Shown here piece by piece: positions 15,206-46,224 of a stretch of DNA of 64,000 nt; positions within the stretch are counted from its first letter, which is position 1, and each line of letters opens with the position of its first letter. Under the pieces are notes generated by a model. That model had not been told where the DNA came from and searched no databases. It worked only from the letters and a program-made list of their open reading frames with translations. The stretch is from contig CBDETK010000013.1 of NCBI GenBank assembly GCA_965242865.1, positions 5,455,427-5,519,426 on the forward strand. The letters run 5' to 3'. Made by a program: the position numbers and the translations under genes. The DNA comes from Candidatus Latescibacterota bacterium (GTDB lineage: Bacteria > Latescibacterota > UBA2968 > UBA8231).

Positions 15206-15238
15206 TCACCTCGGTGCCGCCAAGAGCATGGCGTCGAT
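15206..15238 (-). repeat. relic D of the DUF1156 methylase 3' end
   Basis: The minus strand reads ATCGACGCCATGCTCTTGGCGGCACCGAGGTGA (IDAMLLAAPR*). The genuine methylase end is CTCGACGCCATGCTGCTGGCGGTGCCGAGGTGA (LDAMLLAVPR*). That is 5 mismatches in 33 nt by manual alignment. The relic lies 10 nt upstream of the ATG at 15195. Confidence 0.7.
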
Positions 15239-17102: not shown

Positions 17103-17235
17103 TTAGCGCGGCACCGCTAGTAGGAGGCGTTTTTCGTTGCAGCCTTGAGGATAGGGGGCGGATAGGGCGTTGGCAAGGCGGAGGAAGTCCTCGGCACAAA
17201 TCAGCGTCCGCAGCCTCTAAGGCGATGGCGGATGA
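17103..17235 (-). pseudogene. relic B of the DUF1156 methylase 3' end (about 130 nt, decayed)
   Basis: The minus strand reads ..DFLRLANALSAPYPQGCNEKRLLLAVPR* against the genuine ..DFLRLANALSALYPQGCNEKRLLDAMLLAVPR*. A 68-nt core has 3 mismatches and includes a 34-nt identical run. There are in-frame deletions and an upstream in-frame TAG. The relic lies 21 nt upstream of the ATG at 17081. Confidence 0.85.
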
Positions 17236-17553: not shown

Positions 17554-17602
17554 CTACCTCGGCACCGCCAGCAGCATGGCGTCGAGTGAGGCGTTTTTTT
17601 CG
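17554..17602 (-). repeat. relic C of the DUF1156 methylase 3' end
   Basis: 17556-17586 is identical (31 nt) to 18865-18895. The minus strand reads ..SLDAMLLAVPR* with a TAG stop. The relic lies 24 nt upstream of the DUF433 ATG at 17529. Confidence 0.85.
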
Positions 17603-17854: not shown

Positions 17855-18748
17855 TTAGGGGAAATAACGGTTATGGACTAGACTATTTGCTTCTTCCTTG
17901 AATGCAAGATCTCCGAAAAACCAGAAGTATTCCTTGATCAAGTTGCTCAACGTAGGATCGGCTTCTAAGTCATCAATTTTGAGCTTCAATTCAGCAAGAA
18001 CATCTCGGTTAATTCCACGTCCATGAGTACCCCATCTTTTTTGATCGTTAAGTGCTTGGGCGATTTCTTCCGCACGTTTCTCCTTTTCTTTTTGAGTAAC
18101 AGGTTTCTTTGTAGAACCGTGTGTTGACCAATCCTTGAATTTGTACTTTACAAGCCAATGTTGAATGAGTCGAACTGATAGCTCGGCTGCCAATTCATAT
18201 TGACGCAAATCAGCAGCATCAAGTTTCTGAAGCAGCACCAAATCCGCACTTGTCAGGGTGCCTTCTTCGGCTTTTTTGACAAAGCGTTCGTACTGTTCAA
18301 GATAAGAAAGAACCGATATAGGGATGGGTTTGTCTTCTATATACAATTGGGGATCAACCGGCCCCAAACAAGAGAAGTAGTCCATCAAAATTGCGTCCCC
18401 GGACATCACGAGCACCGTCCCTGCCGACATCGCCTTATCGGGAATGAGAAACTTCACCTCTTTGTAGTAATGCCTGAGCGTGGTAACAATGCGTTCGGCG
18501 ACCTCGACAATGCCACCAGTTGTATCAATGATCACGAGCGAACCTTCGCGGCGTTCCGGGACCCTTTCGATAGCCAACCTGACGCGGTGATCGACCGACT
18601 CCATGATTGGACCGAAAATTGTCAGCGCATCCATACAGGTATGCTTCTCAATTTCAGCGAGCTTGGAATTAAGCCACTCGACCGCGATTGAATCGCTCGT
18701 ATCTGGATTCTTTTGTGGGACCGGCTGCGCGGTGATGTCATCGGCCAT
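17855..18748 (-). CDS. SDH-family (serine dehydrogenase proteinase) ClpP/SppA-fold serine protease
   Basis: 297 aa. 'IIDTTGGIVEVAERIVTTLRHYYKEVKFLIPDKAMSAGTVLVMSGDAILMDYFSCLGPVDPQL' matches the family core with its nucleophile Ser in 'AMSAGT'. A hand count of one 60-nt line (18001) gives 27/60 G+C. Confidence 0.78.
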   Translation of the reverse strand: MADDITAQPVPQKNPDTSDSIAVEWLNSKLAEIEKHTCMDALTIFGPIMESVDHRVRLAIERVPERREGSLVIIDTTGGIVEVAERIVTTLRHYYKEVKFLIPDKAMSAGTVLVMSGDAILMDYFSCLGPVDPQLYIEDKPIPISVLSYLEQYERFVKKAEEGTLTSADLVLLQKLDAADLRQYELAAELSVRLIQHWLVKYKFKDWSTHGSTKKPVTQKEKEKRAEEIAQALNDQKRWGTHGRGINRDVLAELKLKIDDLEADPTLSNLIKEYFWFFGDLAFKEEANSLVHNRYFP

Positions 18749-18862: not shown

Positions 18863-21774
18863 TCACCTCGGCACCGCCAGCAGCATGGCGTCGAGGAGGC
18901 GTTTTTCGTTACAGCCTTGAGGGTAGAGGGCGGATAGGGCGTTGGCAAGGCGGAGGAAGTCGGGGCCGCGATCTTGCTCGGCGCTGATTAGCGTCCGTAG
19001 GGCGGTGGCGTGGCCGGTGGATTGGAGCAGCATGGCGGTGTGGACGCGGTCGAGGGTGGTGTCGCCAAGCGTGGCGGAAAGGGGGTCGTCGGAGGATTCG
19101 CCGTATTGTGGGCGCGGCTCCCGGACGAGCGTGGGGGTGCTGTCCTGCTGGTCGGGGAAGAGCGTCTGCTGGGCGTCGGCTCCGCTTTCGATGTACGTGG
19201 CTGCGGCGGCCGCGCCGTCTTCGCCGAAGAGCTTTTGGGCGCGCTCGGCTACGGAGAGGAGGCGCACGACGCCCTTTTCTTGGCCGATGATGCGGTCGGT
19301 TTGGGCGGCGAGGTCAATGCCCATGGGCTGGGCGAAGCGGCGCACGACATCGAAGGGGAGCGCGAATCCCGTGGCCGCGGCTTGGGCGACGGCTTCTTCG
19401 TCGGCCTCGTCGGCTTGGTCCTGATTTTCTGCAACAGGGGCCGTGCTCTGGAGCGTCCACAGGAAGAGCGCGGTTAGGCGGGCGTCCGCTTCCAATGCGC
19501 CGTGCGTTTGCGCCTCGGCCGTGCCGAGCACCTGTTGCAGGGCGGCGCGACCGACGACTTCCCAGACTTTTTCCAAGTAATCGGGCAGGCCGATTAGATC
19601 GCCTTCGGCGGTTTCGACAGCGCGGTAGCGGCTGAAAATTTCGAGGGCCGGGCCGATGCAGGCGAAAACCAGATCGGCCCCGCGGATGCCTTCGGCTTGC
19701 AAGCGGTCGATCCAGTCGGCGACGCGGACCGGCAGTTCGCGCAGGACATCGGCCCAATCGCCGATGGGGGCGTCGTCGGGACGGGGGCGGCAGATGAGGT
19801 GGACGCTGGTGGCGAGGGCAGCGGAATCGCGGGCGCGGAGACGGGTCGCGCTTTCGGTAGCAATCGGCCACGATCCGGTTATGGTCCAACCGCCGCGAAT
19901 CATGCCCGAGAGCAACGCTTCCCAGCCTTCCGTTGTTTTATGAGCGAAGACGACCGAGCCGATGCCTTCTTCGCTCAGTACGCGGCGACCTTCGGCAAAG
20001 GCTTTCGCCATCGTCTCCTCGAACCATGCGCGGTCTTTTGGGCGGCCGTCGGCCTGCTTGGTCTCGTCTTGTACGGCCTCGGCGGTCTTGGGCGAGAGCA
20101 GGTTGTCAGGATCGAAGGGATCGCGCAGTAGCGGATTGTTGGGTAGCGTACGTTTGAGCCAGACGAGGAAGAAGTCGGAGAGATCGGAATAGGGAATCGC
20201 GTCGTAGTACGGCGGGTCTGTGAAATAGACGCTGGTGGCTTGGTCGGGGAGTGGGTGGTCGGTGGCGTCGGCGGATTGAAGTTGGCCTGAAACTGCAGAT
20301 CGGGCGAATTGTATGACTTCACAAGTTGCACCTATACCTGATAGGAAAACCCCCCGCGCATTGCTCTTTGGTGTAGATTCACAGAAATCCCACACAATGG
20401 GAATGGCTTGACGTGCAAAGAGATTTACAGGGTTTTCAGCATTGCTTTCCCACCGAGTAAGGGAGTTGTTGCCATCCGCCATTCTGCCTAAAAGCAATGC
20501 GATTAGGGTTTGTTGAATGCTTGGCGTGAGCGTTACGCTAGATCGGCCCAACCCAACCAACGCCACCTTCTGCCGCGCCGTAAACAAATCCCCCCACTGC
20601 ATCATACCATATCGCTGCACACGAAAGCCCAACGTGCCGATTGGTGGCAACGGCTCATCCGGCACCGGGCAAAGCCCCTGCCGCCCACCCCGCTCCCACT
20701 CGTCCAACATCCGCGCCACCCGCTCCTGCGCCACCCGCACCGCCGCATAATCCGCCCCGTCTCGCCGGGCCGCACCGTCACCACCGCCGTCATCCGCGCC
20801 CCACCCGTCCGCCTTCCCTCCGCGTCAAAAACCACATCCGCGCCGCCCCGTTGGGCCGCAAGCTGCGCCCGCACCCGCTCCGGCGGCAGCACCGCGCCGC
20901 AGCACAAACAAGTCGCTCGCGCTCGCGCCACCGTGCCGCCGCGCACCTCTCGATCCGCCTGCGGCTCAACCACCGCAAACTCGACGCTCGGCGGCTCCCC
21001 CTCGCAACGCTCAACCCGATGCTGCAACGCCCGCTTGCGCTTGGCCTTCTTGCACAACCAAAACGAGCGCATCAGGGGAATCTCCGCGCCGCAGTTGGGC
21101 GCTTCGCAGCGCACCGTGCGCGCCCACAAGTAGGCAATCGGCGTGGCCCCATCCGGGTCCCTCGGATACAGCTCGGCCAATTCCCGCTCGGCCTGCCGCT
21201 TAATTTCGCCGCCGACCCGACGCAACTCCTCGGCCAGCCCCGGCCCGTGCCGCGGAATATCCTCCAGCATCACCTTGAGAATCAGACACGCCACCGGATT
21301 TAGGTCGCTGGCAAACGCCTCGCAACCCAGCCGCAACGCCTCCAGCGGAATCGACCCGCCGCCGGCAAACGGATCCACCACCAGCGGCGGCTCCGCGCCA
21401 TGCGCCGCTTGCACCAACGCCCGGCTCACGTCGAGATGGGTGCGGTCCGCCGCATTCTTCCAATTGGCAAAGTTGGCAATGAACGCCAGTAACCCCTGCC
21501 GCAGCTCCAAGTCATTCGCCAGCGGCTGCCGCACCGCGAGCAGAATGTTCCGCGCTTGCCGCTTAAAGTCCTCCGGACAGTGCGCGTCGCACGGGTCTGG
21601 CAGCAGCAACGCCAGCAACACCGCCCGCGACGAGGCCAACGGCCGCCGCGCCCACCACAAGTGCAACGTACTCGGATGCCCATGCCGAATCGACTTCTCC
21701 CGCGCCGCGTACTGAGAAACCTCAGCAATGGGAAAATCAACTTCGGCGAGACGTTTGCAGACGCGGGGGATCAT
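18863..21774 (-). pseudogene. DUF1156 (COG1743-type) Zn-ribbon DNA methyltransferase, interrupted by a 1-nt frameshift near 20752
   Basis: N-terminal ORF 20602..21774: 'EVDFPIAEVSQYAAREKSIRHGHPSTLHLWWARRP', the SAM-binding 'DPFAGGGSIPLEA' and Cys pairs 'CEAPNCG'/'CLCCG'. C-terminal ORF 18863..20740: 'FTDPPYYDAIPYSDLSDFF' (DPPY catalytic motif). The frames join as ..RPGETGR/DYAAVRVAQE.. only if one nucleotide is added in GGGGCGGATT. Confidence 0.85.
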
Positions 21775-21855
21775 GGATTCTCTTTCCGTTCCTGCCGAGG
21801 CGGGATGGTGCTGGCACAGCTAAACCTGCGGTTCGGCGTCGTCATTGGCCGGTGC

Positions 21856-22065
21856 TTATCCGCGCTCCAGTTCGGCCGGATGCATGCTGAGATATTCACG
21901 AACCTCCAACTGCATTCGGTCGATCTCGGCGAGAAATCCCGCCACCGAGCCTCGGTAATTTTCAGGATGGGTTTCCACATTGCGTAGATGGGCTATTTGA
22001 CGCTGGAAATGCGCGATTCGCCCCAGAGTGACGTCGAGTTCGCGATCGTTTGCAATCATGGTCAT
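21856..22065 (-). CDS. small helical protein (69 aa) coupled to the upstream NTase
   Basis: Its ATG overlaps the NTase stop (ATGA at 22062-22065). Predicted helical, with no motif. Confidence 0.45.
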   Translation of the reverse strand: MTMIANDRELDVTLGRIAHFQRQIAHLRNVETHPENYRGSVAGFLAEIDRMQLEVREYLSMHPAELERG

Positions 22066-22502
22066 TCCCCCGTGATTTCAACGATGCCACGTTCAGTACC
22101 ATCGCGTTTGAGTTGCCAATCTTCGATGGCGGATTCTTCGCCACCGATGGCCGCCAAGCGGCGAACCCAGAACACACTACATCCAAAATGATCTTGGGCC
22201 GTTCCGTGATAGAACAGGAGTCGGGCTTCGCCGACTAGTGACCCCATATCGAAATTGTCATCCATAATCATGAAGATGTCCACATCGTTGGGTTCGTATT
22301 TTTCAGTAATAAACGAGCCGAATACGATGAATCGAGCTAGATAGCCAGTTTGCGCCGCGATCTGATAGATGCGTTCGAGGCGCATGGCAAGCAGCTTTCG
22401 GCGATGCGATCCCGTTCCAAAACGGCTGACTGTTTCGGCGAGCGAAGCCGTATAGACGCCAAAAGGAAGATCACCCATTGCGGTAAAGTCAGGTAGGGGC
22501 AT
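22062..22502 (-). CDS. minimal nucleotidyltransferase-fold protein (pol-beta superfamily)
   Basis: 146 aa. 'FIVFGSFITEKYEPNDVDIFMIMD' is the GS...DxD NTase motif. Confidence 0.65.
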   Translation of the reverse strand: MPLPDFTAMGDLPFGVYTASLAETVSRFGTGSHRRKLLAMRLERIYQIAAQTGYLARFIVFGSFITEKYEPNDVDIFMIMDDNFDMGSLVGEARLLFYHGTAQDHFGCSVFWVRRLAAIGGEESAIEDWQLKRDGTERGIVEITGE

Positions 22503-22642
22503 AGACCCTCCTGTTGATGAGAACCATTCTAATGAGACAGTCGGTTAGATCGTGCATCCCCGCGGCCAGCCCATTCCATCTTTCATCCCCCAAGGCCGTC
22601 GCTATACAGATTCCACGAAGATAAACAGTATTATTAGTTTAA

Positions 22643-25600
22643 TCACTCAGTTCCTGATTTTTGAACAATAAATGCTTTCATACCACCTGCATAGAATTGA
22701 ATTTGAACTTTATGACTTGACGATATACTAGTATCTATCATTGAATTTCTTTTTTTTAAGAAAAGAGGTATCTTATACTGAAGATCTATAATACGCACGT
22801 ATAATCTTTTTTTATATTTGACTATAACAGCATCAAATATCTCAGGATTACCTTCATCATCTTTCCAATAATCTTGCATACATAAGCTAGTTCTAAAACG
22901 TTGCTGAATTTTTCTCATGTGTCTCCTAAAATAAGAGAATTTTCTGTTATATGCTTCTGCGATACCCAAAAAGTAATGATATCTCATAGGGTCTTGTTCA
23001 AGTATAGGCCCATTAGAGCGAACTAAATCAAATAACTTAGATCGGCTGGCACTATGGTGTAAGTTACGCCCATAGTGCTGGAACAATAGCTTTGATACTT
23101 CATCTAAGTGAGTATATTTTTCAAGTTCACGCACCTTTGCACCTAAAGCATCCTCATCATTTTTCTGGGAGTAATAATAGAAGTATAAAATTAGGGCGTA
23201 TGGCTTTAAATCTTCTTTTTTATACAAGTCACTTATAAAATTGATATATTTTTCATCATTAGCAGAAGAAGAATGATGCTTTTTTCTATATCTGGCTTCT
23301 ATTTCGGCAATGGTTTCAATCCCTTCATGAAGCTGTCTTTTCGCTCGATCTAATAAATCTTCAATCGAAATTATACTACGCAATTCTGTTTCTTGGGTAA
23401 GAGAAAATGTTTCTAAATACCATATCTCAAACCGTAAGTATTCTCGGAAACTGTATATACTAAAGGGATCTTCTATCATTTTTATATAAAATAATTCCCT
23501 CGCTTCGTCAATATAAGGTTGTACTGCACTATGTATAACTTGCTCACGATCTAGCAACTGGGCTAGTTTAAAATTGAGAACTGCTCGTCGATGTGTTAAT
23601 CTGTGACTTCTTCGATATAAGAAACTTTCTGCATATATGATACGTTCGATGCCACGTTCTAAAGATTTCTGAGTTCCTCGGTATTGTAAATTTGTAGCGT
23701 AGTGAAGGTTGAAATGAGGATCATCAGAAAATTCATTTGCACATATATCATATAGATTATCAATCTTAGATTGTGTAAATTCTTCTGCCGTTATCATTGC
23801 TTTTAGTATATCTACAATTAAACGGGAATTATGAGGAGTATAAGTTAATTTTTTAAATATTTTTTGGTATTCCACAAATCTTTTATCTGAATCACTTAGA
23901 TACATCTCTATAAGTAAGTCTGAAATTACCGGATGACGAGTTCGAAAATATAGGTCGGGTTCATCTCCCGATATATTTTTTTCTTCTTGGACCAAAATTC
24001 CTTTTGCATCGTATTCTATGACGTCACGTTTGAATGTACCCCAATCTTTAGACACCAGTTTCATCAATAAACTGGAAGGCATTAAAATTTTGAATCTATA
24101 TAATAATGATGTATATAGAAATGACTCCTTAGCCTTTTCTGATAGTTGTTCATATGCGCTCCGTAATATCTGGTCATGATGTCCATCTGTAACTATGGAT
24201 AGCAGAGACACAAAAGCATCTCCTTTATAATCTCGAACAACCGTAGAGGCGAGAGAGTTTCTTTCTTTTTCATCTCTGACAGTGATAATCTTTGAGTCAT
24301 CTAATTTCTTAATCAGATCTGATGCTTCTTTTTTGTTAAAATTAGTATTGATCTCCAGTTGATGCAGGTTGGGATATGATCGGTTATGGGTTAATTTTTG
24401 TAGGATATTTTCCCTTATGGGAACCAGCATCACTATATTAGATCCAGAGAGTTGTTGTATGCTGAGATTCGACCGCAATTCAATCATTGATTTAAAGAAA
24501 CTGTCTACCTCACATTCATCAAATAGAAGCATGATATTTTCAGTGTCAACAGCACTGATTAGTTCACATAAATCTACTTCTCTAATATCTTGAGGCTCTA
24601 ATATCTCAAATACTGCTACATCTAAGTCAGAGTCAAGAATACTATGGACTAATCTATAGCAGAAAGTCGTTTTGCCGACACCATAGGATCCAGTTATTGC
24701 AATAATAGGAATTACAAATTCTTCAGAATTGAAAAATTGTTCTAATTTATTGATTATCTCTTTTTGACAATCTAATCTTATTACATCATAATTCTGCTTT
24801 ATCGCAAAATAAGATGGTCTTTCTCCCGTATAAAATTGCTCTGGTGAAATGTATTCAAATCTGGTATGTGGATTAATCTGGACAAGACTGCTTCCAAGCC
24901 TCTTAATAAGCCTATTAGATATATTTATGGGAGAACTGTCTTTTTGGCGAAACTGCGGTTTTCGCCTTCTTATAGCTGATTCTTCACTCGATTTTTCCCA
25001 ATCTTCATATTTTTGATAGAATTCAGAAGCAGTGCATTTTATAATTCTAATACTGCTGCTCTCAAGGTATGGTAGCATATCTTCCTGTATGGTGGGATCT
25101 ACCAATAGTATATCTCTCTTATTTCGGTAATTATATCGATCAAAACGATCAAGAAGAAATTTAGCAAACGGATCTCTAAATGAGTATCCAATCACGAGAA
25201 GTTGAATACGGGGCGAGATGTGTTCTAGGGCCTGTAACACTATCTTGTAAAAACCGTTAACGGATTCAAAATCTCTTGTTGAAAAAATGAATGGATATTT
25301 GGCTCTATCACTAATACAACCATTTAGCTTAATGTATTTTATCTCATCGTTTGCTGGATTGTAATGATATTCATGCAAATTTTTTGCAGGCTTCAGGATT
25401 TTATTTTCGTCCGATGTACTAAATACTCTATCAAAAGCCTTCTCAACTATAATATCCAAATTGGTCGTAATGATCTCTTTCCAAGGTAGGCGAGCAATTG
25501 TAGTATGAAATGCAGTGGGTTCTAGATTTCTAAGACATTTTTCTACTATATCATCAAACTCTTTGCGATCAAATTGAGGATTTCGACTAAGCACATCAAC

Positions 25601-25807
25601 ATATTCAATAATACTGTCGGTTTGATAACTATTTCCAGACTTTGCTTTGTGATAACCCATTAATTGACTACTTAGATACACATTATCATCGGTTATAGAA
25701 GCACCTGCGCCTAAGAACAGAATCGTATTACCCGATATGATATTAGGAAATATGTCTCTTCGTAAAGTTTCACTTCCTTTTTCTTGGACATCTGTTATAT
25801 GGTACAT
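22643..25807 (-). CDS. SIR2-like (SIR2_2) domain fused to a P-loop STAND-type NTPase and a long helical C-terminal region
   Basis: 1054 aa. N-terminus: 'ILFLGAGAS', 'ITTNLDIIVEKAF', 'IKLNGC' and 'VIGYSFRDP' (SIR2_2 pattern). Middle: Walker A 'ITGSYGVGKTT' and Walker B 'IMLLFDECEV'. Very AT-rich: line 22681 is 19/60 G+C, against 47/60 for line 20761 in the methylase. Confidence 0.82.
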   Translation of the reverse strand: MYHITDVQEKGSETLRRDIFPNIISGNTILFLGAGASITDDNVYLSSQLMGYHKAKSGNSYQTDSIIEYVDVLSRNPQFDRKEFDDIVEKCLRNLEPTAFHTTIARLPWKEIITTNLDIIVEKAFDRVFSTSDENKILKPAKNLHEYHYNPANDEIKYIKLNGCISDRAKYPFIFSTRDFESVNGFYKIVLQALEHISPRIQLLVIGYSFRDPFAKFLLDRFDRYNYRNKRDILLVDPTIQEDMLPYLESSSIRIIKCTASEFYQKYEDWEKSSEESAIRRRKPQFRQKDSSPINISNRLIKRLGSSLVQINPHTRFEYISPEQFYTGERPSYFAIKQNYDVIRLDCQKEIINKLEQFFNSEEFVIPIIAITGSYGVGKTTFCYRLVHSILDSDLDVAVFEILEPQDIREVDLCELISAVDTENIMLLFDECEVDSFFKSMIELRSNLSIQQLSGSNIVMLVPIRENILQKLTHNRSYPNLHQLEINTNFNKKEASDLIKKLDDSKIITVRDEKERNSLASTVVRDYKGDAFVSLLSIVTDGHHDQILRSAYEQLSEKAKESFLYTSLLYRFKILMPSSLLMKLVSKDWGTFKRDVIEYDAKGILVQEEKNISGDEPDLYFRTRHPVISDLLIEMYLSDSDKRFVEYQKIFKKLTYTPHNSRLIVDILKAMITAEEFTQSKIDNLYDICANEFSDDPHFNLHYATNLQYRGTQKSLERGIERIIYAESFLYRRSHRLTHRRAVLNFKLAQLLDREQVIHSAVQPYIDEARELFYIKMIEDPFSIYSFREYLRFEIWYLETFSLTQETELRSIISIEDLLDRAKRQLHEGIETIAEIEARYRKKHHSSSANDEKYINFISDLYKKEDLKPYALILYFYYYSQKNDEDALGAKVRELEKYTHLDEVSKLLFQHYGRNLHHSASRSKLFDLVRSNGPILEQDPMRYHYFLGIAEAYNRKFSYFRRHMRKIQQRFRTSLCMQDYWKDDEGNPEIFDAVIVKYKKRLYVRIIDLQYKIPLFLKKRNSMIDTSISSSHKVQIQFYAGGMKAFIVQKSGTE

Positions 25808-26078
25808 CTCAAATCCTTATAGTCTATATTGCGTTATAGATGGAAGTCATTGGGAACGGAAAAACGTATGATGACGCCCTTGTTCCTCGTGGTTCTACTT
25901 GGGAAATAAGTCTAGATTAGCCCATTCCAACGCTTTTTCTTCCCACAATCGAATTCGGCGTTTCGGACCACTTCTACTCAAGAAAACCTATCGCCCGCTC
26001 GTCCAAATATATCTATCATGTTCAAAATATCGTATCCTCTACACTAGGTCAAGTGTCTCCATAGTCGCCGCTATCGCA

Positions 26079-26202
26079 CCCACCACAAGTGCAGCGTACT
26101 CGGATGCCCATGCCGAATCTACTTCTCCCGCGCCGCGTGCTTGGAAACCTCGGCAATGGGAAAATCGACTTCAGCGAGACACTTGCATTCATGAGGGATC
26201 AT
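26079..26202 (-). pseudogene. relic of the DUF1156 methylase 5' end (first 41 codons, with a premature TAG)
   Basis: 124 nt align without gaps to 21651-21774, with 15 mismatches by manual count. The relic reads MIPHECKCLAEVDFPIAEVSKHAAREK* against the genuine MIPRVCKRLAEVDFPIAEVSQYAAREKSIRHG.. Its ATG overlaps the HEPN-1 stop (ATGA). Confidence 0.88.
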
Positions 26203-26594
26203 AGTACGCGTTTCTCGGCCCAACGGACGACGGCTTCGGCGATAGTGATGGCTTCGGCGTACTCCTGAGCGGTAACAGGCTCTATATCGCCGGGATAGCG
26301 CGTGGTGGTGGCGTATTTAGTCAACTTGCAGGCTTGACTGATCGGTGCTGGTATGACTTCTCCCTCGTCTTCGAGTAGTGATAATAGGCGGTCGAGATCA
26401 TGCACGTAAGGGAACTCGATGTTGCGTACGATCATCACGGCCTTGATAGATTTTTCGGCGGCCTGCTGAGCATTGAAGCACAAATTTTCGAGATAGACCC
26501 CGGGCACCTCGTTCTTTGCTTGAGTCAGGTCGCTTCGGGCGCGGTTTATCCATTCCCGGGGATCGCCAGGCGGAAAGCGTTCAGGAGGCTTCAT
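26199..26594 (-). CDS. HEPN domain protein (toxin-like), pair 1
   Basis: From the ATG at 26594: 'MKPPERFPPGDPREWINRARSDL..A......LCFNAQQAAEKSIKAV...FPYVHDL' is a classical HEPN (PF05168-like) pattern. It is the same length as pair 2 and has a 14-nt overlap with its MNT. Confidence 0.85.
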   Translation of the reverse strand: MKPPERFPPGDPREWINRARSDLTQAKNEVPGVYLENLCFNAQQAAEKSIKAVMIVRNIEFPYVHDLDRLLSLLEDEGEVIPAPISQACKLTKYATTTRYPGDIEPVTAQEYAEAITIAEAVVRWAEKRVL

Positions 26595-26895
26595 AGACGA
26601 TCCTTCCTTCCTGTAGGGCGGGCTTGATGACCAATGCGTGGGTGTCCTTATACCGCTCGACCGATTGGGGCGTGACGACGATGGCGTCAACTGCTGCGCC
26701 AACCCTGTGCAGGTTCTGATAAATCTGCCCCATAAGTTCAAGCGGGTTCGCGCACTCTTTTATAATAAGCAGATCGACATCGCTGTGGCGGTTCATGTCG
26801 CCGCGAGCAGCCGACCCAAAGAGAATGATTTTCTCTGGTTGGGCAACTTTCACAATGCGGCGAATAATGTCGTCCAGAATCGCTTGTTCGAGCAT
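26581..26895 (-). CDS. minimal nucleotidyltransferase (MNT, antitoxin-like), pair 1
   Basis: 'ILFGSAARGDMNRHSDVDLLII' (GSxxRG..DxD). Start chosen at MLEQAIL to match paralog 27338..27652. Confidence 0.85.
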   Translation of the reverse strand: MLEQAILDDIIRRIVKVAQPEKIILFGSAARGDMNRHSDVDLLIIKECANPLELMGQIYQNLHRVGAAVDAIVVTPQSVERYKDTHALVIKPALQEGRIVYEAS

Positions 26896-26955
26896 CTTCT
26901 TAATCCCACGTTCTATCGTTTGCAATCACGTTGAATGGCGTGTACCGATTGCGGA

Positions 26956-27351
26956 TTAGCCCACAAGTTCCCCGGCCCAGCGGACGACGTTTGTGGCGAT
27001 CTCTATCGCTTCGGCGTACTCCTGAGCGGTAACAGGCCCTGTGTCGCCGGGATAGCGCGTGGTGGTGGCAAATGGAGTGAGCTTTCTGGCCTGTCCAACG
27101 GCGTCCGGGATCGCTTCGCCTGCTGCCTTGAGCAGGGAAAGCAATCGGGCCAAATCATGCACGTAGGGAAAGCCGATGCCGCGCTTGAGCATCACCGCCT
27201 TAATCGCTTTCTCAGCGGCTTGCTGTGCATCAAAGCACAAGTCTTCAAGATAGGCACCGGGAGTGCGGTCTTTTGCCCGAACCAAATTGCTTCTGGCTCG
27301 ATTCATCCACTCTCGTGGGTCGTCCGATGGAAAGCGTTCAGGCGGCTTCAT
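26956..27351 (-). CDS. HEPN domain protein (toxin-like), pair 2
   Basis: 131-aa paralog of 26199..26594 ('LCFDAQQAAEKAIKAV...FPYVHDL'). Confidence 0.85.
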   Translation of the reverse strand: MKPPERFPSDDPREWMNRARSNLVRAKDRTPGAYLEDLCFDAQQAAEKAIKAVMLKRGIGFPYVHDLARLLSLLKAAGEAIPDAVGQARKLTPFATTTRYPGDTGPVTAQEYAEAIEIATNVVRWAGELVG

Positions 27352-27652
27352 ACACCACCTTTCCCTCCTGTAGAGCGGGCTTTATTACCAGCGCGTGGCT
27401 GTCCTTATACCGCTCTACAGAGTCGGGCGTGACGACGATAGCATCGACGGCTGCCCCGACGCCATCGAGATTCATATAAATATCACCCATGAGTTCAAGC
27501 GCGTTCGCGCATTCTTTTATAATGAGCAGATCGACATCGCTATGGCGGTTCATGTCGCCGCGAGCGGCCGACCCAAAGAGAATGATCTTCTCCGGTTGAG
27601 CCACTTCTATAATGCGGCGAATAATGTCGTCCAGAATCGCTTGTTCGAGCAT
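27338..27652 (-). CDS. minimal nucleotidyltransferase (MNT, antitoxin-like), pair 2
   Basis: 104-aa paralog of 26581..26895 ('ILFGSAARGDMNRHSDVDLLII'). Confidence 0.85.
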   Translation of the reverse strand: MLEQAILDDIIRRIIEVAQPEKIILFGSAARGDMNRHSDVDLLIIKECANALELMGDIYMNLDGVGAAVDAIVVTPDSVERYKDSHALVIKPALQEGKVVYEAA

Positions 27653-27688
27653 CTTTTCAACCCCATTAGCATTTGCCTGCGCGGAAGA

Positions 27689-28924
27689 TCACGACGGTTT
27701 CGGCTCCTTCCACAAGCGGACGATGAAGCGGTGCTCTTCCTCGATCAGGTCCGGCTCAGTGCCGTTGTGGTCTCGCATAGCTCTAATAATCCGATTGCGT
27801 ACACCCATGCCAAAATGCTCAACATAGCCGTAATCTCGAAGGATTTCTTTTAGCAATTCATTTCTGGCGGCCCGTAAACCTTCCTTCATCTTCTCTACCG
27901 TCACTCCATTAGGAAGACGCCCGGGCGAGATTACTTCTAGGCGATCACGATACAAAGAGACTTCGATGTCTGTGCCGACGAGCGTATAATCGCGGTGTGC
28001 AACCGCATTCACGATGGTTTCACGAACCGCGGCCCGTGGAAGCGACTTCTTGCGGCGTCTCCTTCCACCATCGAGCCACGCGACAGAGCCCATGTTACGG
28101 GCTACGAAATCTACCGCTCGGTCAATGACCCCCTTATCCATAACACTTTTTTTTGCCGATAACATCGGAACGAGAGGACCTCGAATCAGTTCTTCATCTA
28201 CAGTATTGTACGCCTTTTCATTTTCTGGGAACGCCGCCGCCGTAATGCCCGACTGCGGCAGCCTGCGGTTCGGGTTCTTGCCGAAGAGGAGCAAGCCCGC
28301 GACTGTTCCGACAGTCGTTCCCGCCGCTTCCGCAAGAAGATCAATGCTCACAAGAACTCGACGCCATTCTTCGGTATTCTGCGCCGTTGGCACATCGCGC
28401 TTCTGGATAACACGAAAGTAGTTCCCGATTCGGTCCAGATCGAGTTCCTCCAGTCCCGTCTCAAGTACGGGCTTGATGTCATAGCGCATGATACGGGCTG
28501 ACTGGTAGAGGCGTCCTTCTTCATCGCGACTTGCCTCTCGTGAACTGCTACCGACCCGCACGAACGTCCACCAAGCTTTGCCGCGTTTAGCCTTGTACGG
28601 CTTATCCGGCGCATCGCTAGGAAGAGATACTATGCCGACGGTTTTCCCCTCTCCCCAGTCCACGGTCTCCCAGTAGGGGATCGTCGCCGGACGGATGTGG
28701 GTACGCGCAGTTTCCATCACCCATTCTTCGACTTTGCTCGGCTCGCAGGTGAGACCGGAAACCGAGCCATCGTCCTCGACGCCGAGGAGAATGTGCCCAC
28801 CTTCTAGGTTGAGTAGGGCGGCGATTTCAGTGGCGAGTCGTTCGGGGCGAACGTCGGAGCGCTTGAACTCCACGCCGGAACTCTCGCCATTGCGGATTAG
28901 TTCGATCAAATCGGTTTTGTTCAT
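27689..28924 (-). CDS. COG2865-type protein (AlbA_2/Schlafen-like N-domain plus HATPase_c_4-like and wHTH C-terminal part), copy a
   Basis: 411 aa. 'LIRNGESSGVEFKR' (AlbA_2 N-terminus) and 'VNAVAHRDY...ISPGRLP' (C-terminal module). It starts 8 nt after the PHP-ATPase stop. Confidence 0.78.
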   Translation of the reverse strand: MNKTDLIELIRNGESSGVEFKRSDVRPERLATEIAALLNLEGGHILLGVEDDGSVSGLTCEPSKVEEWVMETARTHIRPATIPYWETVDWGEGKTVGIVSLPSDAPDKPYKAKRGKAWWTFVRVGSSSREASRDEEGRLYQSARIMRYDIKPVLETGLEELDLDRIGNYFRVIQKRDVPTAQNTEEWRRVLVSIDLLAEAAGTTVGTVAGLLLFGKNPNRRLPQSGITAAAFPENEKAYNTVDEELIRGPLVPMLSAKKSVMDKGVIDRAVDFVARNMGSVAWLDGGRRRRKKSLPRAAVRETIVNAVAHRDYTLVGTDIEVSLYRDRLEVISPGRLPNGVTVEKMKEGLRAARNELLKEILRDYGYVEHFGMGVRNRIIRAMRDHNGTEPDLIEEEHRFIVRLWKEPKPS

Positions 28925-28932
28925 AGTTCACC

Positions 28933-31644
28933 TCAGAATCCGTATTTCCGGCGGCGACGCTCAAAAGCATCCTTGCCACCTTCGAGAATCTCCTCAACCA
29001 TTTCCCGCACCGGGTGTGCATCAATGGAGCCTATATGTTTGGGATCAATGTAGGCATTCCCCTCGTCCCCACCTCCAGTGGCGGTGAGGCCAACGATCAG
29101 TTCGGCGTCCCCAAGCACCAAGATGTTGGCATTGTGAGTCGAGAAGACGAATTGGCGACGGCGTTTCTCCTCGCGCATTCTGGGAACCACCCCTTCGGTG
29201 ATGAATCGGTTGTCGAGGTCGTCCTCCGGCTGATCGACGATGAGCGGCGCATCGGACTCTAGCAGGAGGAGCAGCAACACAGCGGTCGCTTTTTGGCCCG
29301 TTGAGAGCGCTTCGAGTGCTTGCCATGACGGCGGTTTGCCGGAAGGAGCCGTGTTGAGCTGGATTGTGGTCGCGGGGGAAAGTTCCAACTCTTCAATGTG
29401 CATCAAAGTCTCGGCCGACGCCTCGGCAAGCCGTTGCGCTTGGGCTGGTGGAATTTTGTAGGTTCGGTGAACGGCATCCGCGCCTGTCCGACAGCTATCG
29501 ACGAATTGCGGCAGCGAGAAGTTCTCCGCTCGGGCGAGGATGGCTAAGGCCTCGGAGAGACGGCCGCGGATCTCATCGCGGAGCAACCGGATCAGCAGCT
29601 CGCGGTTGCCTGCGGCGGTGACCGCCACTTGGACGCGGGGGCGCAGTTTCTTGCTGACTGCTTGCGCGGCTCTGTCCAAACTCCTGAACTCCTCCGCTTT
29701 GATATCTTCCCATTCGGCGAGCAGCATACGCCGTCGTTCAAGGAGTTCTTTTTCTAACCGTTTCAATAAGAACTTGCGCTCCCCGAGCGGGCGAAGGTTC
29801 TCGATTTCGCGCCTAAGACGAATGAACTCTTGCCCGTCTATTGCCGATTTCTGAAGCTCGCGCAGAATTTTCTCATAGTCGGCTTGGACCTTTTCTTGGC
29901 ACTCGTTCCAGCGAGCGCGGATTTCGGCGATTCCTTCATCTGCTTGCTTTAGTGCTTCTGCAAGTTGACCCGCCAATTTATCGAGATTAGTGCTCAGGCT
30001 TTCCAATATGTCATTGCCGCCCGCAAGAATTTTCTTACCCGGTAGATCTCGGAGTGCCCTTTCAGACAAGAACACCCGGTCTATCGGGAGCTCTTGGCGG
30101 AGAAGATCGAGGCATTCGCGGAAATTCTGTAGGCGCTCGGGCATCGAATTGAGCACCCGCTCCTCGCGTACGAGCAAGCTCTTTTCTCGCAGGCGATCTT
30201 CAAGACCGACTTCTCGAAAGCGTTCTAGGGTCTCCTCAAGTCTTGGCAGGGCGGCTAGACGCTCCTCGATTTGCTGGAGCTCGGTGCATACCTCTACTAT
30301 GGACCGCCGCGTCTTCTCGAGTTCTCGGCGGAGATCGGCCTTGCGCCGGGCCGAGGAATGGTCTCGCTCGACGAAGCGGTCGAGAAGGCGCGTGAGCTTT
30401 TCGGGACTCTTGGTGAGTTCGGAAATTTCGTGCTGTCCGTACACCTCGACGCGAGGGAGTATCTCTTTTGGAAGCAGGTTCGACATATTGCCGTCCTCCT
30501 CGCGCACCACGGGCGGGTTTGGAATGGTCCGCTCAATGCGGTACTCGCGTGGCGCCGGGCGGTCACAGCGCACGAGAAGCGAGACTTTCGTCCCGCTGCG
30601 GAGCACTTGGCGCACGATTCCTTTGTGGGCCTTGTCGGCCTCCTCGCCGATAGGCTCCAATCCGAGCGCGTAGCGCAGGCTCTCGATGATGGTTGATTTG
30701 CCGGTGCCGCGCCCGCCGACTAAGACGTTCATGTTCGGATTGAAGCGAATGGCTGCACCATCCAGAAAGCCACCTTCCCAAGTCAGGGAAACGAGTTCGG
30801 CGTGGTCGTCGGGCGTGGAGTCGCTGTTCAGCCGAATTCTCGACCCGGGATCGAGAAAAGCCTGCCGTAGCCCCTCAACCGTGATCTCGGACATCTTGAT
30901 CCAGCATGTAGCCGAAGGGTCTTTCAGATCGCTCGGCTTAACGACATCCTTCGCGTTGATCGCGGCTACGGCTAGATTTTCATCTGCGGGATGGTTTCGC
31001 TGATAGTCTGGATTCTCGTTCTGGACAATTGGACGTACCTCGGGGGGCAGGCTGGCGACAGGCCCAGGGATCTGGATCGCGAGCAGGTCTTTAGCACGCC
31101 ATGCGTTGATCCGCGCTTGGCCTTCGAGTGCTTTGAAAAGCCCTTTGGCGTTTGTCACGTGCGCGGCGATGGCGACTCCGCCCTGTTGCTCGACCATTGT
31201 AAGTACCTTGTCGAACGGCTCGCTCGACAAATTCGCTGAAGGGCCAGTCTTTCGGATTCTAAACTCGCCTAGAAACCGATCCAAACTGTTCTTATCAGCA
31301 TTCGGCGGATAGATGCACAGGATGTGAATGCCTTCAGACGAAGAGAGCTCGAAACCGGGGAATATCGTGACGTTGGTATGTTGGGCGGCTTCTTGGAACG
31401 CGGCTACTCCGCTCGCGTCGTTGTGATCGGTGATGGCGAGCACGGAGACGCCGATTTCGACTGCCTGCTCGACAATGGCTTTCGCGTGCTCGCGAGCATC
31501 GCCGCTGGTTTGCTGGCCTCGGAAGGTTGCGCCGTAGCCGTGTGGGTTTACTTGGAGGGCGCATCGATGAAATACAGCACCCGCTGGCAACCCGCTGGCC
31601 TTGGCGATAGGGTCCTTAGCCCTCACACTCGACATGGTCTCCAT
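28933..31644 (-). CDS. PHP-domain phosphoesterase fused to an SMC/ABC-like coiled-coil ATPase (Ppl-like / TrlF-like architecture)
   Basis: 'FHRCALQVNPHGY', 'AITDHND', 'GFELSS' and 'IAAHV' (PHP motifs). Walker A 'GGRGTGKST', a long coiled coil, then 'LSTGQKA', 'LIVDQPEDDLD' and 'VFSTHNANI'. The start at ATG 31644 (METMSS) has GAGAGGG upstream. The longer track start 31731 overlaps the neighbouring relic. Confidence 0.85.
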   Translation of the reverse strand: METMSSVRAKDPIAKASGLPAGAVFHRCALQVNPHGYGATFRGQQTSGDAREHAKAIVEQAVEIGVSVLAITDHNDASGVAAFQEAAQHTNVTIFPGFELSSSEGIHILCIYPPNADKNSLDRFLGEFRIRKTGPSANLSSEPFDKVLTMVEQQGGVAIAAHVTNAKGLFKALEGQARINAWRAKDLLAIQIPGPVASLPPEVRPIVQNENPDYQRNHPADENLAVAAINAKDVVKPSDLKDPSATCWIKMSEITVEGLRQAFLDPGSRIRLNSDSTPDDHAELVSLTWEGGFLDGAAIRFNPNMNVLVGGRGTGKSTIIESLRYALGLEPIGEEADKAHKGIVRQVLRSGTKVSLLVRCDRPAPREYRIERTIPNPPVVREEDGNMSNLLPKEILPRVEVYGQHEISELTKSPEKLTRLLDRFVERDHSSARRKADLRRELEKTRRSIVEVCTELQQIEERLAALPRLEETLERFREVGLEDRLREKSLLVREERVLNSMPERLQNFRECLDLLRQELPIDRVFLSERALRDLPGKKILAGGNDILESLSTNLDKLAGQLAEALKQADEGIAEIRARWNECQEKVQADYEKILRELQKSAIDGQEFIRLRREIENLRPLGERKFLLKRLEKELLERRRMLLAEWEDIKAEEFRSLDRAAQAVSKKLRPRVQVAVTAAGNRELLIRLLRDEIRGRLSEALAILARAENFSLPQFVDSCRTGADAVHRTYKIPPAQAQRLAEASAETLMHIEELELSPATTIQLNTAPSGKPPSWQALEALSTGQKATAVLLLLLLESDAPLIVDQPEDDLDNRFITEGVVPRMREEKRRRQFVFSTHNANILVLGDAELIVGLTATGGGDEGNAYIDPKHIGSIDAHPVREMVEEILEGGKDAFERRRRKYGF

Positions 31645-31654
31645 TTTGGCCCTC

Positions 31655-31906
31655 TCATTCGTCCCGTGTTTTCCATTTTTCAGAAGTCTTTTGACCTTCC
31701 CTAACTTCCACCGGCTGCTTGAGCGCGTCAACGCTCAGATAGTAGTGAGCTACCTTGGTGACCTCGTGCCACGGAAATCGCACGGGGTCTCGGATCGGCT
31801 CTTGAAGCTCTGGCGCACTCGCGCAGTGGGTCACCACGTAGAGCCAGTAGCAGTCGCGGCGATCCTCGGCGACGCGCCGCTCGTTGGGCGTCAGCAGGAT
31901 AAGGAA
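31655..31906 (-). pseudogene. C-terminal fragment of a PD-(D/E)xK / DUF3883-like nuclease domain, no usable start
   Basis: Manual translation directly after an in-frame TAA (31907-31909) gives FLILLTPNERRVAEDRRDCYWLYVVTHCASAPELQEPIRDPVRF... This matches the 'f.LT.NE...A.....Y.LYvV.....P.l..I.DP' tail I remember for DUF3883-type domains. The upstream catalytic part is absent. Confidence 0.35.
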
Positions 31907-32095: not shown

Positions 32096-33646
32096 TCATC
32101 TGAAGCTTATAAAGCTGAAGCGGTTTCGTTTCAACTCAGCCAAAAACGCTTGGCCTTCGCCTCTCAGCGTTTCCTCGCGCCACACTTGATAGATCAGGAG
32201 CCAGAAGCGGTCCTTCTCTTGGGTCTCCATATCCTTCAACTTATTGGCGCGTCTTCGTATCGCCTCCCGAATTCTCTTAATCCTGTAGCGTTTTGCGTAC
32301 TTTAGTAGTAACACATCCGAGAGGCAGTCATCTATCGCGATGACCTCTATGAACTTGTCCTCCAGCGTACTCAACTGAAGGTTATGTTTGAGCGAGTAAT
32401 ACAAGGCATGGGCGATGGCATCCGAATAGATTCTCTGAATTCCAATCACTAGGAGATGTTCAATAAAATCAAGAATGACTTTCTCGATTCCATCATAGCG
32501 ATGCTTGTCGAACACGTGCTTGTCTAAGATTGGAGCAAGATATGGATATAGCAGTGCCAAGTTGATAGTCTCCTGAACGAAGAGACGCTTAGCTCGGCTA
32601 TCGAGACTCGGAGGCACCATCTTGATAGCGTAGTTCAAAACGGCATAGGTCTCCGCTCCATGCGCTAGTTTCAGTGCCAAGTCCAGGAGCGAACGAACCT
32701 TCCCGAAGCGAACGGTTGCGCCTTTGGCTGGCAATCGGAAGTTGTTCAACTCTCGAACCCAGTCTTTTTGGATTGGAAGTGGCATCGGCAAGATTTCAGT
32801 CTTACGGTCGTTCAGAACAAGCTCGTATTCGCGCAGTTGCATCCCAAGGTCATGGATGAATTTCTCAGCTTCGTCATAGGTTTTCGCGTAAAAGGTGTAA
32901 TCGTCAATATAGCGGCTAAACCTCTCGTATCCCTTCTTGGTCATCTCATAATCAATTCTGGTCAGTATTATCTCTGAGACGACGTTGGATGAGTGTGGCC
33001 CGATCAAGATCCCATTGGTTTGTCCATCTCGGATACCCTGGGTGGCTTTGTCCAGAAGATTTCCTGCCAATAAGACCGAGCGGCACTTTTTCGACTTACT
33101 ACGACCATGTAGGGCCCATGGGATTGAATGAGTGTAGATGCTGGGAAAGCAATTTGATATATCAGTGTAAACGACATAATGCGCTCCCATCATTTCGCGA
33201 ATGTCTATTTCTTCATGCTCGAAGTGTTCCTTTCCCTTGTAATTCATTCGGAAAACACGCTCACTTGACGTTTTCCGAACAAAGAGACGGCTCACGGGTG
33301 TCTTCGGTTTTGCGCAGTGCCCTTTAATTGTCGCCCAATGCTGCTTCAGGGCTAGACACTGGACAAGGTGGCTTTCGGGATGGGGAACCCCCATCTGACG
33401 AGGGATATTGACGGCGTGTAGTGGTTCGTAGCGGATGAAATCGTGCTTTCGTTTCTTAAAGGTCTTATCCAAATTTTTTGAGTCTTTTTCTGTTGTTGGC
33501 TTTAGAAGAATGTTCGGGGCATAGGCTGAAAGCCCTTTGGAGGTAAAACATGGCGGAAGTTTTTCACTGAATAGGCCATAGTCAACCAAGCCTATGAATG
33601 CTTCGTCCTCCGAAAGGCCGAGCCCTGTCGTTTGTCTCCTTACCAT
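32096..33646 (-). CDS. reverse transcriptase, stand-alone Abi/UG (defence-associated) type with a helical C-terminal domain
   Basis: 516 aa. 'YTDISNCFPSIYTHSIPWAL' (RT motifs 1-2), 'GILIGPHSSNVVSE' (motif 4) and 'RYIDDYTFY' (YxDD catalytic motif 5). There is no maturase or endonuclease domain, and only 45 nt of upstream spacer. Confidence 0.86.
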   Translation of the reverse strand: MVRRQTTGLGLSEDEAFIGLVDYGLFSEKLPPCFTSKGLSAYAPNILLKPTTEKDSKNLDKTFKKRKHDFIRYEPLHAVNIPRQMGVPHPESHLVQCLALKQHWATIKGHCAKPKTPVSRLFVRKTSSERVFRMNYKGKEHFEHEEIDIREMMGAHYVVYTDISNCFPSIYTHSIPWALHGRSKSKKCRSVLLAGNLLDKATQGIRDGQTNGILIGPHSSNVVSEIILTRIDYEMTKKGYERFSRYIDDYTFYAKTYDEAEKFIHDLGMQLREYELVLNDRKTEILPMPLPIQKDWVRELNNFRLPAKGATVRFGKVRSLLDLALKLAHGAETYAVLNYAIKMVPPSLDSRAKRLFVQETINLALLYPYLAPILDKHVFDKHRYDGIEKVILDFIEHLLVIGIQRIYSDAIAHALYYSLKHNLQLSTLEDKFIEVIAIDDCLSDVLLLKYAKRYRIKRIREAIRRRANKLKDMETQEKDRFWLLIYQVWREETLRGEGQAFLAELKRNRFSFISFR

Positions 33647-46215: not shown

Positions 46216-46224
46216 AAGGAAACA

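Follow-up and report, generated by a model that had tools for sequence, protein, structure and literature searches.

An AT-rich SIR2-STAND gene carried by a cassette in the Hma defence island of a Latescibacterota bacterium: a probable single-protein antiviral sensor of the Avs5/SAMD9 architectural class

Can a gene whose base composition departs so far from that of its host encode a working antiviral sensor, and how did it reach its present place? This question is raised by a minus-strand gene at positions 22643..25807 of a 64,000-nt stretch of DNA from Candidatus Latescibacterota bacterium (assembly GCA_965242865.1, contig CBDETK010000013.1, positions 5,455,427 to 5,519,426), which is the window analysed here and to which coordinates refer unless another contig is named. 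The gene, termed SIR2-STAND gene (protein P0001), had been described in a sequence-only reading, made without database searches, as an AT-rich Avs5-like sensor gene, very recently transferred and possibly not expressed. Our results indicate that its product is probably an antiviral STAND (NLR-like) sensor that acts as a single protein and belongs to the Avs5/SAMD9 architectural class, that the gene was horizontally acquired in a cassette, and that its low G+C says little about when this happened.

The gene is intact, and what chiefly sets it apart is its very low G+C. The ATG-to-stop open reading frame (ORF) of 1054 aa was found exactly where the sequence-only reading had placed it and contains both motif strings quoted there, GSYGVGKTT being residues 373-381 and LLFDECE residues 427-433 of the translation; at the gene's own base frequencies, the chance probability of 1054 open codons is about 7e-38. 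The claim that its composition is far from that of the host also holds. Indeed, in 200-nt windows the G+C falls sharply to 0.27-0.39 between about 22600 and 25900, against 0.62-0.67 in the methylase gene downstream (21000-21700), and the overall value of 0.336 (genome 0.606) is the lowest among the 2,621 non-overlapping ORFs of at least 300 aa that make up the host composition set from this 6.0-Mb, 13-contig assembly. At the three codon positions (GC1, GC2, GC3) the G+C is 0.441, 0.309 and 0.259, against host ORF medians of 0.654, 0.452 and 0.774. Other clusters of long ORFs with G+C of 0.36-0.43 lie on contig C13 at about 3.045-3.047, 3.448-3.451 and 3.638-3.647 Mb and are probably further foreign islands.

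The combined evidence supports a predicted order of SIR2 domain, NB-ARC-like STAND NTPase, winged-helix/TPR arm and small beta tail, all encoded on the minus strand. The SIR2 NADase-type effector domain (24983..25789, residues ~7-275) is delimited by alignment with ThsA, matches Pfam SIR2_2 at residues 110-256 (E 1.8e-14) and contains GAGAS at 33-37, TTNLD at 114-118 and NG at 162-163. It is followed by the STAND NTPase module (23777..24874, residues ~312-677), made up of nucleotide-binding domain, helical domain and winged helix, which is assigned from superposition with NLR proteins and CED-4 and from a match to Pfam nSTAND_NTPase5 (PF25199) at 324-469 (37.5 bits, cut-off 34), with weak nSTAND3 and AAA matches besides; the Walker A motif GSYGVGKTT and the Walker B region LLFDECEVD (427-435) lie within it. 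The putative sensor arm (22895..23776, residues ~678-971) is TPR-like, with about 14 helices in the model, and collinear with SAMD9 and PaAvs5, while the C-terminal beta domain (22667..22876, residues ~978-1047), with 5-6 strands in the model and related by hhalign to cold-shock domains, would be a degenerate cold-shock/OB-like tail.

The predicted structures are in agreement with this division. The full-length AlphaFold model, built on an alignment of 48 family sequences (A1), has a mean predicted local distance difference test score (pLDDT) of 86.2 and a predicted template modelling score (pTM) of 0.66, and for residues 560-1054, modelled separately from 28 sequences, the values are 88.9 and 0.85. 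In a Foldseek search of the PDB the first-ranked entry is EfAvs5 (9jap; E 9.4e-22, 928 columns, template modelling (TM) scores 0.32/0.38), followed by six human SAMD9 entries (E 2.4e-18 to 7e-18, 1217-1293 columns); the PaAvs5 filament 9nc9 is found at E 1.9e-15 and DSR2 at about 1e-10. Using VIA-align, residues ~7-275 of the model superpose on ThsA (8bto) with Z 20.4 and a root-mean-square deviation (rmsd) of 3.2 A over 252 residues, and the same domain also superposes on KomC and DSR2 (Z ~19 for DSR2), whereas residues ~312-677 fall on NRC4 (Z 17.9), Sr35 (16.8), CED-4 (16.6) and RPP1 (16.4) with rmsd of about 4 A. Over longer stretches, the alignment to EfAvs5 extends to 746 residues (model 6-854, Z 19.5) and that to PaAvs5 to 673 residues (model 1-824, Z 16.5). 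The SIR2 fold at the N-terminus and the P-loop STAND NTPase in the middle, both proposed from the letters, are therefore borne out by profile searches and by structure (Z 20.4 against ThsA, 16-18 for the NTPase module); the proposed helical C-terminus is also recovered in the model, but ends in a beta domain. Aligned to SAMD9 (9zjr), the C-terminal model gives Z 11.9 and rmsd 6.3 A over 443 of its 495 residues, its positions 1-492 falling on SAMD9 915-1589 and thus reaching the very end of that protein, whereas PaAvs5 504-769 aligns with the first 276 residues of the C-terminal model only.

Does the SIR2 domain have what an NADase needs? The catalytic His of ThsA (in KMHG) aligns with N162 of the protein (in KLNGC); the family profile matches ThsA at E 1.1e-12 in a PDB profile search, with TTN-D aligned. 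Asn is found at this position in 45 of 48 family members (one each has His, Ser and Gly), and in a FastTree tree of these and 11 sister-family sequences, in which the family forms one clade (support 100), the ancestral residue of the entire family is Asn, and a return to His occurred once. This raises the alternative that the domain is no NAD+ hydrolase, being either dead or engaged in another reaction, such as ADP-ribosyl transfer or synthesis of an NAD-derived signal, so that the protein would act by another route. Indeed, the replaced His is essential in ThsA and DSR2, the KomC H146N and DSR2 H171A mutants are among the solved structures matched, and the sister family keeps HG in 11/11. However, EfAvs5 has Asn (N180) at the equivalent position and yet hydrolyses NAD+ and defends, as reported in the available text of PMC11897194, and PaAvs5-1, with NG at 153-154, depletes NAD+ and defends, and NG and HG are about equally frequent in Avs5 homologues according to the available text of bioRxiv 2025.07.08.663546 (= PMC12931631). 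Moreover, GAGxS, TTNxD and E122 are invariant in 48/48 family members (G33, A34, G35, S37, N116, D118 and E122). A catalytically dead SIR2, suspected from N162, was dropped because these two active proteins carry the same Asn, and the broader alternative of a non-hydrolase is in our judgement quite improbable; the NG pair points instead towards Avs5-type SIR2 domains.

The question of which known system is closest has a layered answer. The protein shares with Avs5 (EfAvs5 9JAP, PaAvs5 9NC9) the single-gene layout of SIR2, STAND NTPase and helical repeat sensor, the GAGxS and TTNxD motifs, the NG in place of HG and, with EfAvs5, a Walker A lysine at residue 379; in the broad sense, the Avs5 features are thus present (SIR2 motifs, Walker A/B NTPase, helical-repeat sensor and overall likeness to solved Avs5). 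It differs from them in a structural-alignment identity of only 14-16% and in being about 200 residues longer than EfAvs5 (869 aa) and PaAvs5-1 (828 aa), because of a longer TPR arm and the beta tail. The nucleotide-binding oligomerisation domain of Avs5 is called nSTAND3 in the papers and that of the present protein nSTAND5 in Pfam, but this was rejected as an argument against Avs5, since 21/44 family members also weakly match nSTAND3; the label in the papers may come from a Pfam release without PF25199. With human SAMD9/SAMD9L (9ZJR) and Avs9 the protein has in common the collinear order of SIR2, P-loop NTPase, TPR and OB-like tail, at an identity of 9-13%, and it differs from them in having neither SAM nor AlbA_2, for which Pfam gives no match, the SIR2 domain being its very start; AlbA_2 is found only in other genes of the neighbourhood (27689-28924 and 33692-34930). 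The effector in SAMD9 and Avs9 is the N-terminal, Schlafen-like AlbA_2 nuclease domain (available text of PMC12680541), whereas SIR2 is the only candidate effector here. That Avs5 sensors are akin to SAMD9 has been published before, as the accessible parts of PMC12680541 and PMC12803255 state.

By sequence, the SIR2 domain is closest to Thoeris ThsA, but the match is confined to model residues 7-275; in agreement, PADLOC matches this part only, as ThsA-like (E 1.7e-11, profile positions 7-217/478), and the SLOG/STALD domain and ThsB partner of ThsA have no counterpart. For DSR2, the low-rmsd match (3.2-3.5 A) covers model residues 8-276 only and there is no DSR2-type C-terminus. In both ThsA and DSR2 the catalytic His stands where this protein has Asn. 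A placement among DSR or bNACHT proteins was not borne out, as PADLOC gave no match to DSR or AVAST models and NACHT (PF05729) is not matched at E <= 0.01, nSTAND5 being the best NTPase family. NCBIfam has no name for the protein, nor for the DUF6932 protein and the 69-aa ORF that lie beside it (see below). Thus, of the proposed Avs5 likeness, the architecture and the best whole-chain match, EfAvs5, stand, and the blank Avs5 hidden Markov models (HMMs) and the extra TPR/OB tail like that of SAMD9 do not fit. By the standard of the curated HMMs the protein is no Avs5; its place is in a distinct, uncharacterised branch of ~1050-aa proteins of the same superfamily, marked by NG and the degenerate OB tail, whose layout is that of the SAMD9 core.

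For this branch, a search of clustered public proteins returned 221 relatives, the best 120 of which are mostly full-length (1029-1092 aa; four are partial, 612-942 aa), 36-87% identical, and include proteins from Flavobacterium, Winogradskyella, Belliella, Roseivirga, Christiangramia, Ignavibacteria, Blastocatellia and a gammaproteobacterial metagenome-assembled genome. When 1.84 billion cluster representatives were searched exhaustively, 709 matches were obtained at E <= 1e-3, 335 at <= 1e-10 and 86 at <= 1e-30; a metagenome scan returned no relative with the single protein as query and 80 loci with the alignment. The P-loop residues G373, G376, G378, K379 and T381 are invariant in A1, and of the 157 positions conserved in at least 90% of the other 47 sequences the protein keeps 156, the exception being I667 for L. 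Pfam SIR2_2 is matched by 44/44 members and nSTAND_NTPase5 by 43/44. Four members (P0142, P0147, P0149 and P0157; 1295-1378 aa) have 250-335 extra residues ahead of SIR2, for which Pfam gives no match and an atlas gives a weak hint (Cap4_nuclease in 10% of one cluster, score 0.87). A literature search on 'nSTAND5' and variants found no paper, and the available text of the eLife nSTAND paper (PMC8195603) does not treat the present family.

More distant relatives (L061-L084; 19-25% identity, mostly ~1040 aa) include a sister family of SIR2-nSTAND5-TPR proteins ending in a cold-shock domain (CSD), which has full-length homology at 18-25% identity, the same length and the same domain order. Among ten such relatives of ~1035-1050 aa scanned with Pfam, all have SIR2_2 and nSTAND5, most have TPR and several a terminal CSD (E 5.8e-11 in L065, 2e-9 in L079); a 1044-aa 'SIR2 family protein' on the Klebsiella pneumoniae plasmid CP043374.1 belongs here. 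The profile of 11 sister-family sequences (A2) aligns with A1 at an hhalign probability of 100 (E 5e-61, 994 columns), and when only the C-terminal 80 residues of A1 are compared, they match the A2 CSD region at a probability of 94.7 (E 5.7e-8). The two families differ at the active site, the sister family (e.g. L061-L082) having the canonical HG and the present one NG, and in the tail, which is recognisable as CSD in the former and too diverged for Pfam in the latter: no member (0/44) matches CSD (PF00313) at E <= 0.01, and the FGF-type aromatic RNP1 motif of cold-shock domains is not kept. We read the family tail as a putative degenerate OB/cold-shock domain, homologous by profile-profile comparison only. 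In one locus (L077; 6-674, 2701-3349, 5965-9096) an MNT/HEPN pair and an hmaB-like gene are found within a few kb of a sister-family gene, which is a second case of such a SIR2-STAND gene near Hma genes.

How would such a protein act? The mechanism most likely follows that of the solved and tested Avs5 proteins, by analogy with which the protein would be an autoinhibited monomer at rest. Upon infection, a phage product would bind the C-terminal arm, nucleotide-dependent oligomerisation would bring the SIR2 domains together, and the assembled domains would hydrolyse NAD+, so that the infected cell would stop supporting phage growth. A STAND ATPase may instead have a regulatory or housekeeping role in signal transduction, outside immunity: STAND-TPR NTPases include transcriptional regulators, and one STAND-TPR protein, 6mfv, is among the structural matches. 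This possibility appears extremely remote to us, as the protein has no DNA-binding output domain and its effector is a SIR2 of the ThsA/DSR2/Avs5 type; in addition, its distribution is patchy, the gene being found in none of 60 relatives at E <= 1e-20 (30 of the same genus, 6 from other genera of the family and 24 of the same class), it lies within a defence island, and defence genes are found near 9/19 other family loci. In a neighbourhood scan of 117 ORFs in 19 loci (L040 being left out for size), these nine have at least one PADLOC match (E <= 1e-25, within ~6 kb), and their neighbours include restriction-modification genes, a type II-A retron, AbiP2, PD-Lambda-3, PD-Lambda-4, HEC-06 and PDC candidates.

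The assignment to an antiviral sensor of the Avs5/SAMD9 class has also to be weighed against a number of results that speak against it, among them the scan just described, which has no background control. The Avs5 HMMs are not matched, neither PDLC02170 of PADLOC (E <= 0.01) nor NF041814 of NCBIfam (E <= 0.001; its cut-off is 1000 bits), and a sequence search with the family profile does not find EfAvs5 at E <= 1. A shorter metagenomic relative, the 816-aa protein of L083, touches both models through its SIR2 part only. The PDLC02170 profile has no match in 168 genomes of the phylum; as the 14 control genomes give none either, this search carries no information. The whole-chain structural matches have low TM scores (0.32/0.38) and an rmsd of 13-17 A, because the domain arrangement differs, the model being a closed monomer and the solved proteins active filaments. 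The helical arm, with Z ~12, stands barely above unrelated TPR proteins at Z ~10, and the argument therefore rests on its end-to-end collinear coverage and not on the score. The Walker B Asp, D430, is Asn in 16/48 members of A1, while the position of E433 has Glu or Asp in 48/48; by analogy with what is reported for EfAvs5, the family may bind nucleotide without hydrolysing it. The two remaining points concern expression and decay. On an index akin to the codon adaptation index, computed from typical host ORFs, the gene scores 0.357, the third-lowest of the 2,621 ORFs (median 0.702), a low value as had been suspected. Furthermore, a variant in run X5, ~97% identical over 22777-26113, has lost 2 nt at 23221 and gained 1 nt at 24907; as these indels lie inside the frame, that copy looks broken and some copies appear to be decaying.

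These last results lead to the rival view that the gene is a silent passenger, intact because it arrived not long ago, barely translated and contributing nothing to the host. Besides the codon index, it is favoured by the fact that 8.3% of the codons are very rare in the host (median 1%), ATA, TTA and AGA together making up 11%, by the frameshifts of the near-identical X5 variant, and by the neighbouring methylase gene hmaB, which is split into two ORFs where an X4 contig has 25 extra bases. The genome has, however, the cognate tRNAs for AGA, UUA and AAA: among its 53 tRNAs are Leu(UAA) in two copies, Arg(UCU), Lys(UUU) and three with a CAU anticodon, of which one could decode AUA. Immediately before the ATG there is a Shine-Dalgarno-like AAGGA, and a consensus scan of the upstream region of the cassette found a promoter-like site, TTGACC-17-TATTTT (26024..26052, minus strand), which is weak evidence because AT-rich DNA yields many such matches (21 vs 13.8 expected).

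A comparison was also made with L004, a 4.7-kb contig of an uncultured bacterium that is 88.2% identical at the nucleotide level over window positions 22404-25837, a span that reaches from the gene across the spacer downstream of it into the beginning of the DUF6932 gene. This copy retains both the -35 TTGAC and the AAGG. Between the two genes the number of synonymous substitutions per site (dS) is 0.40 and that of nonsynonymous ones (dN) 0.059, giving a dN/dS of 0.148 (0.09 in the SIR2 domain, 0.15 in the NTPase and 0.18 in the C-terminus), with the same junctions to DNA of normal G+C on both sides of the comparison. Such purifying selection argues that the protein is made somewhere, and 156/157 conserved positions are kept. 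These results make a silent passenger unlikely. The earlier doubt about expression is weakened, though not removed: the codon adaptation is indeed very low, but the selection, the conserved positions and the cognate tRNAs argue the other way.

The same comparison bears on the time of transfer. A very recent transfer from a low-GC donor had been proposed from the composition. L004 carries the relic of the 5' end of hmaB, an upstream block (window 25972-26084, 82% identical) and a piece like the 3' end of an AlbA_2 gene, and its gene has a G+C of 0.336 vs 0.556 in its flanks. As both copies share junctions to DNA of normal G+C, the AT-rich gene was joined there before they diverged, and after a dS of 0.40 the GC3 values are 0.258 and 0.268. 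Differences from A/T to G/C and from G/C to A/T are equal in number (159 vs 159), a count that, unpolarised for want of an outgroup, does not by itself bear on amelioration. Our simple two-state amelioration estimate, which assumes host-like mutation pressure and an equilibrium GC3 of ~0.77, would require an ancestor with a GC3 of ~0.07, which is implausible. In addition, the G+C of family genes (0.245-0.433) is below that of the flanks in 35/35 loci with flanking DNA, including flanks of 0.51-0.55. The low G+C is thus a standing trait of the gene family and not the mark of a very recent arrival; taken with the junctions shared with L004, it does not date the transfer, and this part of the sequence-only reading finds no support. 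That the extreme AT-richness is in addition a selected, working feature of the family is a speculative idea that we regard as rather doubtful. If it were true, rare codons or silencing of AT-rich DNA could hold a toxic NADase at a low, safe level, and its synthesis could be tied to infection, for instance by a lifting of the silencing or by way of tRNAs that AT-rich phages supply.

A foreign origin, in turn, stands, since the gene is not found in the 60 relatives and is the lowest-GC ORF of the genome. It is single-copy in the genome; two weak SIR2-like matches are found elsewhere on C13, at 2132529-2132903 (L002, in an open frame of 1264 aa) and at 1503823-1504227 (L003, in a low-GC open frame of 357 aa). 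The data support horizontal acquisition in a 4.4-kb cassette just upstream of the Hma methylase gene. The boundaries of the cassette are the two copies of a direct repeat (D3) on the minus strand: downstream, the 5' end of hmaB itself (21647..21774) and, upstream, a relic of the first 128 nt of this DUF1156 methylase gene (26075..26202, 88% identical), which meets the stop of a HEPN gene in an ATGA overlap. Between the two copies, over 4,428 nt, lie the SIR2-STAND gene, preceded by an upstream region of its own, a gene for a DUF6932 nucleotidyltransferase-like protein (22062..22502, minus strand; Pfam E 4e-25, PADLOC PDC-M63A E 6e-9) and an ORF of 69 aa that overlaps the DUF6932 stop by 4 nt (21856..22065, minus strand; no match in Pfam, PADLOC or NCBIfam). 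Among the fetched loci, DUF6932 stands beside the family gene in L004 only; it was therefore rejected as a partner, and the SIR2-STAND gene is treated as a one-gene system. Contigs of four DNA-type runs were compared with the window. The cassette is contiguous and identical in those of run X1, which may be the source sample and is therefore no independent evidence. A contig of run X4 that joins 21712 to 27669 (5,956 nt skipped) was tried as an empty-site form and not counted, its shorter side being 23 letters.

The island that received the cassette extends over about 10.4-35 kb of the window and is built around a Hma system, with a HmaC-like DUF499 ATPase gene (10429-13173) and the HmaB-like DUF1156 methylase gene (18863-21774, minus strand); the HmaA helicase models have no match among the ORFs scanned with PADLOC from 10.4 to 36 kb. 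Further genes of the island encode HEC-01A-like and NsnB-like ATPases, an SDH-type protease, two HEPN-MNT pairs, two AlbA_2 proteins, a Ppl-like protein and a DRT4 reverse transcriptase. Embedded genes are reported for 931/1,485 Hma systems in the available text of bioRxiv 2024.01.29.577857.

Within the island, hmaB is split into two overlapping ORFs: 20602-21774 corresponds to the N-terminal and 18863-20740 to the C-terminal half of HmaB profiles. In run X4, a related contig is longer by 25 bases behind 20751. This equals the frame offset between the two ORFs, and the same-strain X1 contigs lack the additional bases; hmaB is thus split in the window. Short relics of the hmaB 3' end (84-100% identical to 18865-18961) are scattered downstream of this gene, at 15208-15238, 17122-17189 and 17556-17586, and bracket the SDH-type protease gene (17855-18748), which suggests that cassettes were swapped at the 3' end of hmaB too. 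On the other side, the HEPN-MNT pairs lie in tandem at 26199-27652 (minus strand), the second being a 72%-identical repeat of the first (D2). Two AlbA_2 + HATPase_c_4 paralogues (27689-28924 and 33692-34930, minus strand), with segments 71-83% identical and 6,006 nt apart, bracket the Ppl-like PHP-ATPase gene (28933-31731) and DRT4 (32096-33646), and L004 contains pieces similar to the AlbA_2 3' ends and to the stretch that precedes the Ppl-like gene. Outside the island, a superfamily-1 helicase of 1066 aa (43015-46215, plus strand; Mokosh MkoA match, E 1.1e-73) is followed by two ORFs with no Pfam match (46225-47328 and 47286-49229), and this region (43015-49229) may be a second defence locus.

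What the finding means can be put in terms of the family and of the island. The gene adds an uncharacterised branch of ~1050-aa proteins to the SIR2-STAND immune sensors, and the SIR2-NTPase-TPR-OB layout of this branch is closer to the full human SAMD9 core than that of the shorter characterised Avs5 proteins, so that it could help to reveal what the OB tail contributes. The locus also illustrates cleanly how a defence cassette was exchanged into a Hma island, leaving a scar of the methylase 5' end. Finally, a gene with a GC3 of 0.26 that is under purifying selection, lying in a genome with 61% GC, provides a test case for selection on the composition of defence genes.

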